From a virus (lineage: Duplodnaviria; Caudoviricetes): a stretch of DNA of 64,000 nucleotides. Of this stretch, positions 28,272 to 52,915 are shown piece by piece (positions within the stretch are counted from its first letter, which is position 1; each line of letters starts with the position of its first letter). Made by a program: the position numbers and the translations under genes. Under the pieces are notes generated by a model. That model saw nothing but the letters and a program-made list of their open reading frames with translations, was not told the origin of the DNA and made no database searches. The stretch covers positions 128,001 to 192,000 of the IMG/VR virus record IMGVR_UViG_3300014208_000024. One strand, 5' to 3'.

Positions 28272-30701
28272 TTAAAAATCCGAAAAATTTGCACCAGTTG
28301 GTAAAACTTGAAATTCTAAATCTATAAATTCGGCAGTGCGAGTTGGCTTAAGCTGAATCTTTCCAATTAACATATTTCTGTCGATTGTTTCTGAAGTGTT
28401 GTTGCTGTCGTCCATAACTACACGAAATGCTGTAAGTCCCCTCTGGTTCTGTATTTGCAATAAAATAGGCTCTACTTTTGCTAAGAACTGATCTCTTAAA
28501 GTTTGATCATTTTGTTCGAACAACAGTGTTAATGCTGCAGCAGAAATAAGTCTTCTAACTTGTAACAATAATCTTCTGATGTTAATTCTGTCAAGAGCAG
28601 ATTGTCTTTGTTGAAGAGTTTTTTGTCCCCAAATTACAATACCTTGTTGTACAAAACTTGCAATAGGATTAATTCTACCTTCATAAAGAACATCTCTTTC
28701 TTCTTTCGAAAGTTTAATATCTGTTCTTTTAACACTTGTTCCAGCTGTAGCTCTATTCAAACCAGCAGGAGCAAACCAAGGTGCTGCAACGTTATCTGTC
28801 AAAGCTAATGTTTTAATTGCCAATAATGTTGGAGCTTGATATGTATATTTTCCAGAAATTGGGTCTTCAATTTGAATCCATGGCCAGTAAGTACATGCAT
28901 AATTAGAATCAATTCCAGTAGCTTCAAGAGTTGAAACTGCTTCTTCTGGTGTTCCTCTTTCTGTTGTTCCATCAGTAGTAGAGAAAACTGAAAGTCTTGG
29001 AGAATCTATTACATAAAGAATATCAGCTCTGTCTTCGATCATACTCAAAGCATATTTAACTATTCCAGTGTTATTTTGATAATCAACACCAGGAGTTGCA
29101 AACAAATTAATATCTACTGCTTCTGGATTTGAAAATACAGCAATAGCTTCTAAAAATTTAGTATAATTATCAGTTTCGCTTTCAACAAATTCTAAATAAG
29201 GGTATTCAAAAGTTTTATATTTATTAAAACCGTCAAAACCACCAGCAGGAACCAATGTAAATTTAAGCTTAGCTTTATCTACAATTCCAGATGTAGCAGT
29301 TGTTGTATAAGCTGTTAAAGAAACTTTATCTCCAGAAACATAATATCTTGAATCTGCTGTATTTTCCATGTGGAAACCTTTTGTATTCGTAGTTGCAGAT
29401 GATACATCGCCTCCATGATAAACAAACAAATCGGCTTCTATTGATTTTACAGAATTTCTAACAGATACAATGCTTGAAGTTAAGCTTGTATATCCTAATT
29501 CAGAAATTCCAAGATATGTTTTAAAAGTTGAATCTCCTGAAAGATAAAGTGTTTTATAAAATATATTAGGAATTGTTCCAGCATCTCCAGAAGCGCTAGC
29601 TGCACCTCTTAAAACATAACCTTCAAAACCTGCAGGAACAGAATTTTCTGGATATCTATTAGCTAATTCAACTGTAATAAACATTGATTTACTTGGATAT
29701 TCCTCATCCCATGTTCCAATGTATTTTCCAATAAAATTAGAAGCAGTTTCGTCCAATGTCACATTTGAATATTTTTCTAATGCTGTTTGAGATGCTGTTG
29801 CATCAGTATCTTCAAATCTTCTAATTATAACGTCAAAAGTATAATTGTTTACATCTAAATTTGCAATTGATATTTTTATTTCTCTTGCAGATGCATCACC
29901 ATCAGAAATAGTGTGAAATCTGAATAATCTATGAACTTCTCCACCAACAACTCTGGAAACAATCCAAGGTGTTATTGAATGAGCATAATCATCTCCATAA
30001 TCTGTATATCCACCATCAGTTTTGTAAGTAAGGGTAGATTGAAGCGCATTTACTCCTGAAAATAAATTCCTAGCAACACCTTCTCTGATAAAATGTGGAT
30101 AAATTTCTTCAACATAAAGATTAATTGCACCTGTTATTACTTTTGGATTTTTTCCAAAAACTTTAACAATATAATTATCTTTTGTTTCATCTAAAGAAAC
30201 TGAAAGTCCGTTTGTATATGCTGTTAAAGGACCAGTTGCTGCACTTATAACAAAATCACTTAAAGGATTTACCATTCCAGTTGTTCCGATTGTAACAGCT
30301 GATTGAACATCAAAATATTTTGTACCAGTACTACTTTGTTTACTTCTTAAAATTGCTAAAGTAGAGCCAGAATAACTATTTGTTGTTGCAGTAGAAGCGC
30401 TTAATGTAATAAGCCAAGCTGGAGAGTTTGTAAAACCACCCTGTCCCAAAACTCTGGAGATTGTTAAATCATTAGCTTGTGCTAAAAAAGAATTAGCTAC
30501 ATAACCTAAAGGAAAATCTGGACTTGTTCCTCCAAATCTTAATGCAAATTCATCTGCGCTAGATACTTTTATTGCTTCAAAAGCAGGTCCTTTTTCTGTT
30601 TTTCCAGCTAAACCAAGTCTGGTGATACCAATTCTAGAAGCAAATACTGAGAAATCTTGTTCTCTTGTATAAACTCCTGGGCTAACGAATATTGTGGCCA
30701 T
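28272..30701 (-). CDS. gp18: Tail sheath protein (T4 gp18-like)
   Basis: MATIFVSPGVYTREQD; PWFAPAGLNR; LYEGRINPI; IWGQKTLQ; LDRINIRRLL; LKPTRTAEFI. Confidence 0.92.
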   Translation of the reverse strand: MATIFVSPGVYTREQDFSVFASRIGITRLGLAGKTEKGPAFEAIKVSSADEFALRFGGTSPDFPLGYVANSFLAQANDLTISRVLGQGGFTNSPAWLITLSASTATTNSYSGSTLAILRSKQSSTGTKYFDVQSAVTIGTTGMVNPLSDFVISAATGPLTAYTNGLSVSLDETKDNYIVKVFGKNPKVITGAINLYVEEIYPHFIREGVARNLFSGVNALQSTLTYKTDGGYTDYGDDYAHSITPWIVSRVVGGEVHRLFRFHTISDGDASAREIKISIANLDVNNYTFDVIIRRFEDTDATASQTALEKYSNVTLDETASNFIGKYIGTWDEEYPSKSMFITVELANRYPENSVPAGFEGYVLRGAASASGDAGTIPNIFYKTLYLSGDSTFKTYLGISELGYTSLTSSIVSVRNSVKSIEADLFVYHGGDVSSATTNTKGFHMENTADSRYYVSGDKVSLTAYTTTATSGIVDKAKLKFTLVPAGGFDGFNKYKTFEYPYLEFVESETDNYTKFLEAIAVFSNPEAVDINLFATPGVDYQNNTGIVKYALSMIEDRADILYVIDSPRLSVFSTTDGTTERGTPEEAVSTLEATGIDSNYACTYWPWIQIEDPISGKYTYQAPTLLAIKTLALTDNVAAPWFAPAGLNRATAGTSVKRTDIKLSKEERDVLYEGRINPIASFVQQGIVIWGQKTLQQRQSALDRINIRRLLLQVRRLISAAALTLLFEQNDQTLRDQFLAKVEPILLQIQNQRGLTAFRVVMDDSNNTSETIDRNMLIGKIQLKPTRTAEFIDLEFQVLPTGANFSDF

Positions 30702-32464: not shown

Positions 32465-33667
32465 TTACCACAAATAAAGTCCCATTGGACCATAACTTAA
32501 TGCTTTGTTTACATTTTCCTGGACTAAAGCTCTTTTTTCCATGATCTTGTCATAGCTTAATTCTTCCAATTGAAGTTTTAATTCTTCTTTTAAATCTTTT
32601 TTATCTTCTCTTGCAGTGGAAATTAAATCATCTTTATTAAGAGTCATTTCTGCATCTGGTATTGGAAGTTGTCCATTAAATTTTCCCCTTATACCTATTC
32701 CTAGTAATTCTTTTGACAGTGCTTGGGCATATTTTTTAACCCATGTTTGTGCCATAGAATTTAATTGCATAAAAGATAAATAATTTAGTTTTACTTGAGC
32801 TGGAGAAGAAACCAACCCATTTCCTTGATATCCTTGTGATATTTGAGTTTGAGAATATCCTGTCCATCCAGGATTAGCTGAATTTCCAGAATAATCTGGA
32901 TTTCCATAATTTCCAGATCTATCATAGTAATAATAAAACACAGTTCCAGGTGTTCCAGCACCCCCTCCAATTCCACCAGCATTATCACCACTTCCTATAC
33001 CATTATTTGGTCTTGGTATTGGATAAAGTGTTAAAACTTTTGTACCATCAGCTCCTGGCCTTATTAAATATGAATATTCAGCTCCTCTAACTCTATTTCT
33101 TAATTCAGCAGCCTGAGCAGTCATAATTGTATCAAAAACTGGCATTACATGATAAAGAGTGTGTCCAGCAAATGAAGCACCGAATTCAGAAAAAGCAATG
33201 TTTGTATTAGCGAATGGATCTAAACCAAATAAATTAATAAAAGAAGGAGTAAACCATAAAACATCGTTTACTTCACGATTTTGTGGAATTATATAATGTT
33301 GTGTTCCAGCAGTTAAAACTATAGATGTTAATTTTAACTCTCTAGTTCCATTAGCACCCAATCCCGCTTGTTCTGCAATAGCTTTTCCGAAACTTTCTTC
33401 AAAATATAAACTATTTGAAACATATTTCATTGTAAAATCTATGTCTGAGGATAAACCTAACATTTCTCCTAATCTATTTACGAGAACCCAATTGTTTATA
33501 TATGTAGAATATTCCTCTATAGATTCACAAATACATTCTTCTATTTGTTCATCTAATAGTTCAACTTGCATTACGGGGGCACCGATTTTCCTTCTTATTC
33601 TATTAATAAGAGAAGTTTTATCAGTTTCTGACATTCCCGAAAGACATCTATCTGTGCAAAATGACAT
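32465..33667 (-). CDS. Neck/head-tail adaptor protein (T4 gp13-like)
   Basis: IRRKIGAPVMQVELLDEQIEECI; WVKKYAQALSKELLG..RGKF.G.LPIP...LN.DDL. Confidence 0.75.
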   Translation of the reverse strand: MSFCTDRCLSGMSETDKTSLINRIRRKIGAPVMQVELLDEQIEECICESIEEYSTYINNWVLVNRLGEMLGLSSDIDFTMKYVSNSLYFEESFGKAIAEQAGLGANGTRELKLTSIVLTAGTQHYIIPQNREVNDVLWFTPSFINLFGLDPFANTNIAFSEFGASFAGHTLYHVMPVFDTIMTAQAAELRNRVRGAEYSYLIRPGADGTKVLTLYPIPRPNNGIGSGDNAGGIGGGAGTPGTVFYYYYDRSGNYGNPDYSGNSANPGWTGYSQTQISQGYQGNGLVSSPAQVKLNYLSFMQLNSMAQTWVKKYAQALSKELLGIGIRGKFNGQLPIPDAEMTLNKDDLISTAREDKKDLKEELKLQLEELSYDKIMEKRALVQENVNKALSYGPMGLYLW

Positions 33668-50569: not shown

Positions 50570-51370
50570 ATGATAAATTCAATAATTTTTAGTTTTGACA
50601 GAGCCGCTCAATTACACTTACTTTTAGAATCAATTGAAAAAAACGCAAAAAACATTTTTAACATCAGTGTTTTATATAAATCATCTAACGAAGAATTTGA
50701 AAAATCTTATTCTTTATTAGCATCAAGATTTATTAATATAAATTGGGTGCCAGAAACTAATTTTAAAGAACAAACTTTAAAATTATTAGATTCCAATTTA
50801 GATTACACTTGCTTTTTTACAGATGATGATATAATATATAATGGTGTAAAAGAGGAAGAAATCATTGATTGTTTAAAAGATAATGATATTTTTTGTTTTA
50901 GCTTAAGATTAGGATTTAATGTAAATGTTTGCTATTCCATGAAGTGTGAAAATGTTCTTATTCCAGACAAACAAGATCAAAAATTTGTTTGGTGGAACTG
51001 GGTAAAAAGTTATGCAGATTTTGGATATCCTTTATCGGTAGATGGTCACATTTTTAGAACTAAAGAAATTAAAAAATTAATTAGGGCAATAAATTTCCTT
51101 AATCCAAATACTTTAGAAGGGGGTTTACAAATTTTTGATAACTATCCTAAAGAAATTATGGTCGCATATAAAACAAGCTCTTTAGTTAATTCTCCTAATA
51201 ATATTGTTAATGAAACACATCCTAATAGAAAAGGAGAAAAATATAAATTTTTAGCAGAAGAATTAAATGAAATATATTTAAGTGGTAAAATAATAGATTA
51301 TAATTCGATAGATTTTTCTGACATAAAAGGATGTCATCAAGAATTAGATTTTAAATTTAAAAACATATAA
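50570..51370 (+). CDS. Putative GT-A glycosyltransferase
   Basis: IIFSFDRAAQL, CFFTDDDI, DFGYPLSVDGH. Confidence 0.65.
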   Translation: MINSIIFSFDRAAQLHLLLESIEKNAKNIFNISVLYKSSNEEFEKSYSLLASRFININWVPETNFKEQTLKLLDSNLDYTCFFTDDDIIYNGVKEEEIIDCLKDNDIFCFSLRLGFNVNVCYSMKCENVLIPDKQDQKFVWWNWVKSYADFGYPLSVDGHIFRTKEIKKLIRAINFLNPNTLEGGLQIFDNYPKEIMVAYKTSSLVNSPNNIVNETHPNRKGEKYKFLAEELNEIYLSGKIIDYNSIDFSDIKGCHQELDFKFKNI

Positions 51371-51371
51371 A

Positions 51372-52172
51372 ATGACCAAAATGTTGTCTCCAATTTTTGT
51401 TTCACCAGGATTTTCATCTGTTGAATATGATAAAAACTTAATTAAAATAATTGTTCCATTTTATAATGCTGAAAATTTTATTGAAAAAAGTATGATGTCC
51501 GCATTAACTCAAAAATATGAAGATTTTAAAGTTATTTTTATTGATGATGCATCAACAGATGGTTCATGGGAAAAGTTGCCACATGATAATGAAAAAGCAA
51601 TATGTATAAGAAATGATGTTAATTTAACCGCATTGCCAAATATACATAAAGCCATAATGGAGTATTGTAACCCAAATGATATTGTTGTTCTTTTAGATGG
51701 AGATGATTGGCTCCCAAATAATAAGGTTCTTCAATATATTAATGAGTTTTATTGTAAAAACGATTGTTGGATAATGTATGGACAAGCAACTTGGAGCAAT
51801 GGTCAAAAGGGGTGTGCTTATGAATATACAGAAGAAGAATTTAATCACTTGAGAAAATCTGCATTTAAGGTTTCTCACATAAGAACTTTTAGAGCTGGAT
51901 TATATCAAAAAATAAAAGAACAAGATTTTAATTTCTCATGTATGAAAGATAAAGATGGAAAGTGGTATAAAATGACATATGATGTGGGAATAATGTTTCC
52001 AATTATGGAAATGGCAGGCTATAATAAAATTAAATATAATGATAAATCACTTTACGTTTATAACTTCGAAAATCCAATCAGTGATCATAGAGTTAACCAA
52101 CAACTACAATGGGATATCCATAAAGAAATATCAAACAAACAACCTTTTAAAAAAATAGAAAGCTATCTATAA
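51372..52172 (+). CDS. GT2 glycosyltransferase with sheath-like N-terminal peptide
   Basis: IIVPFYNAE, FIDDASTDGS, LDGDDWL. Confidence 0.85.
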   Translation: MTKMLSPIFVSPGFSSVEYDKNLIKIIVPFYNAENFIEKSMMSALTQKYEDFKVIFIDDASTDGSWEKLPHDNEKAICIRNDVNLTALPNIHKAIMEYCNPNDIVVLLDGDDWLPNNKVLQYINEFYCKNDCWIMYGQATWSNGQKGCAYEYTEEEFNHLRKSAFKVSHIRTFRAGLYQKIKEQDFNFSCMKDKDGKWYKMTYDVGIMFPIMEMAGYNKIKYNDKSLYVYNFENPISDHRVNQQLQWDIHKEISNKQPFKKIESYL

Positions 52173-52915
52173 TGAACAATCATTTTACCATAGCAATAGA
52201 CACTTGTAATCACCAAGATTGGATTGAAAGGTGTTTAAATACGTGTTTAACACAGAAATATGATAATTATGAAGTTATCTTGGTAGATGCGATTTCTAAT
52301 GATAAAACTTTTGAAATTGCAAAAAAATATGAAAAAGAATTTAATATTTTAAAAACTTATCAAAATGAAATTAGAATTCCACAGGTTGCTAATTTTTTGT
52401 GGCTTGCAGAATTATCAAAACCGAAAACTATAATAGTTTCAATAGATGGGGACGATTGGTTAAAAAACAGCAAGGTTCTTCAAAAATTAAACAATGTATA
52501 CAACTCTGGTAATGTTTGGATGACTTATGGCACTTATGAAGAATATCCTTATAGAAGTGTTTCTCATATTTATAAACCTTATCCTGATGATGTTATAAAA
52601 AACAATTCATTTAGAGAATATCAATGGTTGGCATCCCATCTTAGAACTTTTAAAAGAGAGCTTATTTTAAAAATAAATAAAGACGATTGTAAAAGAGAAG
52701 ACGGAGAATGGCTTGACACAGCAGGAGATCAAGCTATAATGCTTCCAATGTTAGAAATGTCAGGAACAAGAAGTAGATATATCTCAGATGTTTTATATAT
52801 TTATAACGTAGCAAATCAACAAAGAGATGGAGCTATTAATGAACCAAGACAAGTGACTCTAGCAAATTATGTTAGGTCAAAGAAAAAATATAATGTAATT
52901 GAAACTTTAGAATAA
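52172..52915 (+). CDS. GT2 glycosyltransferase (paralog of upstream gene)
   Basis: LVDAISND, IDGDDWL, SHLRTF, DQAIMLPMLEMSG. Confidence 0.85.
   Translation: MNNHFTIAIDTCNHQDWIERCLNTCLTQKYDNYEVILVDAISNDKTFEIAKKYEKEFNILKTYQNEIRIPQVANFLWLAELSKPKTIIVSIDGDDWLKNSKVLQKLNNVYNSGNVWMTYGTYEEYPYRSVSHIYKPYPDDVIKNNSFREYQWLASHLRTFKRELILKINKDDCKREDGEWLDTAGDQAIMLPMLEMSGTRSRYISDVLYIYNVANQQRDGAINEPRQVTLANYVRSKKKYNVIETLE

Follow-up and report, generated by a model that had tools for sequence, protein, structure and literature searches.

An N-terminal peptide with borderline likeness to the tail-sheath arm on a glycosyltransferase of a T4-like jumbo phage

A GT2 glycosyltransferase encoded by a T4-like jumbo phage begins with a peptide of about 20 residues that is translated, conserved at the protein level, flexible and outside the catalytic fold. 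On balance, we lean towards reading this tail as an optional, flexible docking peptide, holding the enzyme to a partner protein and playing no part in catalysis. The peptide resembles the N-terminal arm of the phage's own contractile tail sheath, a likeness that appears borderline in exceeding chance when judged from the sequences, and the handshake pocket of the sheath would be the most specific candidate for the partner, as yet unproven.

The window, meaning the whole 64,000-nucleotide stretch analysed here, spans positions 128001-192000 of a single virus record (372,283 bp, 28.7% GC), the 372-kb genome of a T4-like jumbo phage. The features that bear on the argument are as follows, in window coordinates.

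51372..52172, plus strand: GT2 glycosyltransferase with a GT-A fold, 266 aa (Pfam, AF2, Foldseek, homologues)
51372..51437, plus strand: N-terminal extension of the GT2, residues 1-22, outside the GT-A fold, with a motif common to 11 relatives
51393-51431, plus strand: sheath-like core IFVSPGFSSVEYD, GT2 residues 8-20
51438..52172, plus strand: catalytic GT-A domain, GT2 residues 23-266 (Pfam, homologues, AF2, Foldseek)
28272..30701, minus strand: T4 gp18-type tail sheath, 809 aa (Pfam and tblastn)
30651..30701, minus strand: N-terminal arm of the sheath, residues 1-17 (MATIFVSPGVYTREQDF), from the invariant positions in a 22-sheath alignment
52172..52915, plus strand: adjacent GT2 paralogue without the extension (Pfam domain from residue 6; N-terminus MNNHFTIAID)
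50570..51370, plus strand: upstream 266-aa gene with a TDDD motif and no Pfam match, its stop 1 nt before the GT2 start

The GT2 gene is the second in a long same-strand run of glycosyltransferase-like genes. In all extension-bearing loci the upstream 266-aa gene abuts the GT2, and in many extension-less loci an extra gene of ~200 aa lies between the two. We considered this intervening gene as a source of the GT2 peptide and rejected it, because the two have no sequence likeness. The intervening gene begins RAKSRLGSPTMNLELDD (L007:2355-3008 and L015:2369-2980), which by eye is like RIRRKIGAPVMQVELLDEQ, residues ~20-45 of a 400-aa ORF beside the tail genes of the window (32465-33667, minus strand); it may represent a paralogue of a structural gene that lies within the glycan operon. 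In the same two extension-less relatives, a protein that looks thioredoxin-like by eye, with a WCGPC motif, is encoded directly upstream of the first gene of the glycan operon (L007:1237-1554, L015:1062-1382), and the window showed no homologue of it at the equivalent position. Separately, we looked at late promoters as a sign that the GT2 and the sheath are expressed together. The T4 late-promoter consensus TATAAATA occurs at 32 sites in the window where 16.2 were expected, a count that 100 shuffles never produced; no clear or direct site was found in the window upstream of the sheath gene or upstream of the GT2 and its glycan operon.

By profile, DxD motif and fold alike, the enzyme is a clear member of the GT2/GT-A glycosyltransferase family. 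Its match to PF00535 (Glycos_transf_2) covers residues 26-175 with E = 4e-17 and 63 bits, against a curated cut-off of 23.3. The AF2 model has a mean pLDDT of 90.8, and Foldseek paired it, each time with a probability of 1.00, with K4CP (2z86), TarP (6h4f), SpsA (1qg8) and WrtF (9omh). The DGDD motif, D109-G110-D111-D112, which corresponds to the DxD metal/nucleotide-sugar motif, is invariant in 31 sequences. K4CP, TarP, SpsA and WrtF share with the window's GT2 the fold, the DxD motif and the N-terminal beta1-PFYN nucleotide-binding start, but in a sequence-based PDB search entries of this type aligned only from GT2 residue 22-25 on, so the sheath-like extension has no counterpart in them. 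The 355 homologues that we collected are typically 247 aa long and start 4-6 residues before beta1.

The N-terminus of the GT2 (ORF 51372-52172, plus strand) reads MTKMLSPIFVSPGFSSVEYD / MTKMLSPIFVSPGFSSVEYDKN, and that of the sheath (809-aa ORF 28272-30701, minus strand) reads MATIFVSPGVYTREQD. The hexapeptide IFVSPG is identical in both and the E-x-D that follows is in the same register, giving 8 identities over 13 residues. The shared IFVSPG and in-register E-x-D had been reported in a first-pass annotation of this DNA and can be read directly from both ORFs. Its further remark that the match lies at the protein level, with different codons, also holds: over IFVSPG only 13 of 18 bases agree, the GT2 and sheath codons differing for Ile (ATT and ATA), Phe (TTT and TTC) and Ser (TCA and AGC) and coinciding for Val, Pro and Gly. 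That the sheath gene's 5' end was recently copied as DNA is therefore rejected. The adjacent GT2 paralogue (52172-52915), as the same annotation had noted, does lack the peptide, for it starts five residues before beta1.

Within one genome, the match is unlikely to have arisen by chance, which we regard as suggestive. When all six frames of the whole 372,283-bp genome were searched, SPG....E.D and the looser [VI][SPA]P[GA].{3,5}E.D occurred only at the N-termini of the GT2 and the sheath; strict and relaxed patterns found no further carriers in the 291-kb genome of a relative (G002) or in ~0.5 Mb of other loci. Among random N-terminal 25-mers of genome composition, 33 of 1,000,000 reached the observed ungapped BLOSUM62 score, a rate of 3.3e-5 per N-terminus that corresponds to 0.013 chance matches expected among the 388 ORFs of the genome. 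On this ungapped BLOSUM62 scale the GT2 scored 38 against the sheath arm, and the next best real N-terminus scored 25.

Other measures were less favourable. In a tblastn search of the phage's own genome with sheath residues 1-40, the GT2 was the top non-self match, but with E = 1.8, and across a scan of about 250,000 windows the match is weak and within reach of chance, with several to roughly ten such matches expected by a rough estimate. A position-specific scoring matrix (PSSM) built only from the extensions of other phages ranked the sheath arm 6th among 162,320 six-frame positions, a rank that is not independent of the window sequence because those peptides are homologous to the window's. 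The raw score alone is not rare either, since 76 pairs reached the same value when all N-termini in the genome were compared with one another; the top 25, which we inspected, look like full-length paralogues.

The all-against-all comparison touches on another trait of this genome, the presence of multi-copy families with strongly conserved N-termini, one of which has ...EFIEKSKKIHGDKYDY... in at least four ORFs of 295-441 aa. Examples of such families lie at G000:C1:344862, 166445, 115541 and 128977, all in the phage's own genome, and are probably mobile or endonuclease-like paralogues.

Is the peptide made, and is it conserved? A start downstream of it, which the first-pass annotation had raised as a danger to its own interpretation, is excluded: between codons 5 and 41 the GT2 reading frame offers no ATG, GTG or TTG, and by codon 41 the sequence is already within the fold, past the invariant PFYN of beta1. 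Translation therefore starts at Met1 or at Met4, both upstream of the motif; the database gene call takes Met4 (263 aa). All PDB and Pfam alignments of the GT2 begin at residue 22-26, which leaves the extension outside the fold, and AF2 modelled the tail as coil, with a pLDDT of 55 for residues 1-10 and 68 for residues 11-20, compared with more than 90 for the body. The sheath-like core, at residues 8-20, is thus placed as an arm mimic would be, within the first ~20 residues, in a flexible stretch outside the globular domain.

The extension carries the motif aromatic-V/I-[SPA]-P-[GA]-x3-[IVM]-E-[YLF]-D in 11 relatives, ungapped, and the D of the motif is always 8 residues before PFYN at the end of beta1, a spacing fixed in 12 of 12 sequences. 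Across five DNA sequences, synonymous changes occur at the conserved P, G, E and S codons, including Ser TCN versus AGC, and the composition of the peptide (P, G, S and V) is unlike a random reading of 29% GC DNA. Judged by these comparisons, the peptide is under protein-level selection where it is present, yet it is dispensable in close relatives.

The evidence for dispensability comes from its distribution. The extension was found in 10 of the best 120 of the 355 homologues and in two viral loci, and most homologues are without it. In a tree of the catalytic domain only, the 12 extension-bearing rows fell inside a single 24-row clade together with 12 rows lacking the extension, an arrangement that needs at least 4-6 gains or losses. 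Close homologues without the peptide, which the first-pass annotation had counted as evidence against its proposal of docking on the sheath, therefore do exist. One of them (P0005) is 82% identical and has the same gene order, with the upstream gene abutting, but a shorter and different N-terminus without the FVSPG half. In another (P0013), MSNLPP and IEHP are kept and the core is gone by an in-frame deletion. No extension was found in distant GT2 relatives (those of 30-55% identity, and the 642-kb phage LR756502), some of which are fused to other domains. Because the peptide is selected where present and has been lost repeatedly, we read it as an optional docking peptide.

The sheath arm behaves differently. 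The sheath protein matches Phage_sheath_1 and Phage_sheath_1C in Pfam, and by tblastn it matched the gp18-type sheaths of thousands of T4-like phages. In contractile tails, the N- and C-terminal arms of sheath subunits are strands donated to a two-stranded sheet of a subunit in the adjacent disc, and the sheath initiator offers a similar acceptor (PMC10457771, PMC13433997, PMC10811340). More than 30 IMG/VR sheaths, some with as little as ~50% overall identity, share an arm of the form M-A-T-I-F-V-S-P-G-V-[YF]-[TD]-[RK]-E-Q-D-F with almost no change, and F5, S7, P8, G9, E14, Q15, D16 and F17 are invariant in a 22-row alignment that extends to 53% identity.

Of the invariant residues of this arm, the window's peptide shares F, S, P, G, E and D; Q15 and F17 are missing, so that the set is incomplete. 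Its relatives replace S7 (by P or A) and G9 (by A). The five best-kept positions of the peptide (the aromatic residue, V, P, E and D) all fall on matched sheath positions. Two further conserved positions of the peptide, [IVM] and [YLF], face R/K and the invariant Q of the sheath, so that the overlap between the conservation profiles of peptide and arm is only partial. The peptides of relatives scored 15-32 against the unchanged sheath arm, compared with 36 for the window's, which is the most sheath-like of the family. In G002 (291 kb, 91% complete), the sheath arm is identical and the GT2 peptide is FFISPAPSSVELD, and seven contigs carry an extension-less GT2 together with the conserved sheath arm. 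The peptide is thus not kept wherever the arm is kept, having been lost at least 4 times beside the same arm. An arm that hardly varies leaves no room for co-variation with the peptide, so the comparison suggested in the first-pass annotation is uninformative in these phages. Complex prediction with sheath residues 21-809 (22-row alignment) and GT2 residues 1-30 (31-row alignment) gave a score of 0.00 in two runs, with a partner pLDDT of ~40, values obtained without controls and with a 30-residue partner that is perhaps too small, and which count neither for nor against binding.

Two further observations concern the sheath genes themselves. In several related loci (L083, L085, L086 and L069-L078) the sheath gene is not one clean ORF, which suggests insertions or interruptions. 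In some of them the match covers more DNA than the ORF; in L069, for example, it runs on to 3238, past the end of the sheath ORF at 2849. In L083 and L086, the frame in which the match begins extends back by only 11-12 codons, and what it encodes there is the sheath C-terminal QSALDRINVRRLLL region. The length of related sheaths varies from 780 to 910 aa. Elsewhere, we noticed a protein family with a treble-clef zinc ribbon of the DUF4379 type at its end (Pfam E = 1e-10), represented by L043:805-1920 in IMG/VR record G005 and by G000:C1:299788-300657 in the phage's own genome, outside the window. An internal stretch of this family, IKIKPKTGIQFIDLDFTVLPTGMEFND, resembles the last sheath strands, IQLKPTRTAEFIDLEFQVLPTGANF, with 39% identity over 52 aa in G005 (E = 3e-4) and 9 of 25 residues in the homologue from the phage's own genome (E = 0.013). 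From these alignments, the stretch may be a second borrowed piece of the sheath, or may be due to chance.

How might an optional tail of this kind work? In the reading that we favour, a flexible tail rich in Pro, Gly and Ser would have been added to an otherwise ordinary GT-A enzyme of a large cytoplasmic glycan operon, and would act as a short linear motif that binds a partner protein. If the general GT-A architecture holds here, the tail would emerge from the N-terminal end of beta1, on the face opposite the nucleotide-sugar site. The pLDDT of 68 for residues 11-20 and the invariant spacing to beta1 mean that the modelled tail could instead pack on the enzyme itself or on a second copy, out of reach of any other protein. 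The likeness to the sheath arm, with 0.013 matches expected per genome, is better than a generic motif would give, and this counts against a generic docking reading.

A more specific possibility, which we consider unlikely but worth setting out, is that the peptide is a mimic of the sheath arm, adding a strand to the handshake sheet of the sheath in place of the neighbour's arm. It could dock on sheath monomers that are still free, on the head-proximal disc, or on a handshake domain in the baseplate or initiator. Such docking would, with the same low expectation on our part, bring the GT2 to its substrate, so that it would glycosylate the tail, or let it be built into the tail or ride on it. 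The match speaks for this reading, with 8 of 13 residues identical, in register and at the N-termini of both proteins, as do the best-kept positions of the extension, which fall on F5, V6, P8, E14 and D16 of the arm, all invariant or nearly so. The PSSM rank of 6 among 162,320, the 0.013 chance matches per genome and the predicted flexibility of the tail, which an arm must also have, point the same way. However, an invariant arm faces a drifting extension: relatives score 15-32 to the window's 36, and the peptide of G002 sits beside an identical arm. No extension copies Q15 or F17, S7 and G9 commonly give way to other residues, and the extension conserves [IVM] and [YLF] where the sheath has R/K and Q. 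The peptide has also been lost repeatedly in phages with the same arm, as in the seven contigs that pair the arm with an extension-less GT2. Finally, the tblastn E-value of 1.8 and the roughly ten chance matches estimated at the scale of the scan weigh against it.

It is less probable still that the peptide concerns the active site of the enzyme. Here the sheath arm would be the acceptor, at T12 or an adjacent Ser or Thr, and the enzyme's own tail would occupy the active site as a pseudo-substrate or be modified there, in an autoregulatory or priming role. The fixed spacing between motif and domain (12 of 12 sequences) fits an intramolecular reach, and the two positions preceding [IVM]-E, which align to sheath T12, often hold a hydroxyl residue. 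In contrast, the extension has no invariant Ser or Thr, the tail would leave the end of beta1 opposite the nucleotide-sugar site if the enzyme follows the usual GT-A architecture, and control of this sort would be needless for the extension-less relatives.

The internal proteins of T4 are directed to the prohead scaffold by a capsid targeting sequence at their N-terminus, which is cut off at (L/I)-x-E, the rule followed by the gp21 protease of T4. The concept, a short N-terminal address that brings a non-structural protein into an assembling part of the virion, would be the same for a GT2 peptide that docks on the tail, but the GT2 motif does not fit (L/I)-x-E. A cleavable propeptide or capsid-targeting signal, cut by a T4-type prohead protease after the conserved Glu, would agree with the place of that Glu, 18 residues from the start, but the P3 position before it is S, D, G or P in 12 of 12 sequences and never L or I, and we therefore consider a T4-type propeptide very improbable. 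To our knowledge, there is no precedent for a glycosyltransferase packed into a head. That the peptide is an annotation artefact, never made because translation starts downstream, is hardly credible: most family members are 247 aa long and start 4-6 residues before beta1, but in this gene the frame has none of the start codons ATG, GTG and TTG between codons 5 and 41, the latter being already inside the fold, past PFYN, and both the protein-level conservation with synonymous changes and a P/G/S/V composition unlike a random reading of 29% GC DNA speak against it.

Among known systems, the closest in form to the GT2 peptide are the handshake arms of sheaths (Milano gp20 residues 1-23, XM1 gp6 and phage 812; the T4 gp18 type here), which like the peptide are at the extreme N-terminus, ~20 residues long and flexible. 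With the phage's own sheath arm the peptide has in common, in register, the hydrophobic-V-S-P-G stretch and E-x-D. Unlike the arm, it sits on an enzyme, is without Q15 and F17, does not keep S7 and G9 in relatives, and is optional where the arm is invariant. The handshake domain of sheath initiators (gp25/TssE type, phage 812) provides a precedent for proteins other than the sheath taking part in the augmented sheet. The initiators differ from the GT2 in being structural tail proteins, present in six copies, that give acceptor strands and do not copy the N-terminal arm, and none is an enzyme.

For enzymes acting on virions, Freeman et al. (2023) reportedly described glycosylation of mycobacteriophage virions by phage-encoded glycosyltransferases. 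This is echoed in PMC11256854. The mycobacteriophage enzymes are cytoplasmic and act on virion proteins; in the phage of the window, glycosylation of the virion is hypothetical. As far as we know, no docking peptide copied from the substrate has been described for the mycobacteriophage glycosyltransferases.

The GT2 gene sits in a large and widely conserved glycan operon of uncultured T4-like jumbo phages. If the optional tail of its product does dock on the sheath, it would be the first known case of an enzyme brought to a contractile tail through handshake-strand mimicry, and cargo could be loaded onto phage tails, tailocins or injection systems with the peptide as a simple, transferable tag. 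If it does not, the case would show that a striking six-residue identity with a known structural motif can sit on an optional, drifting extension.
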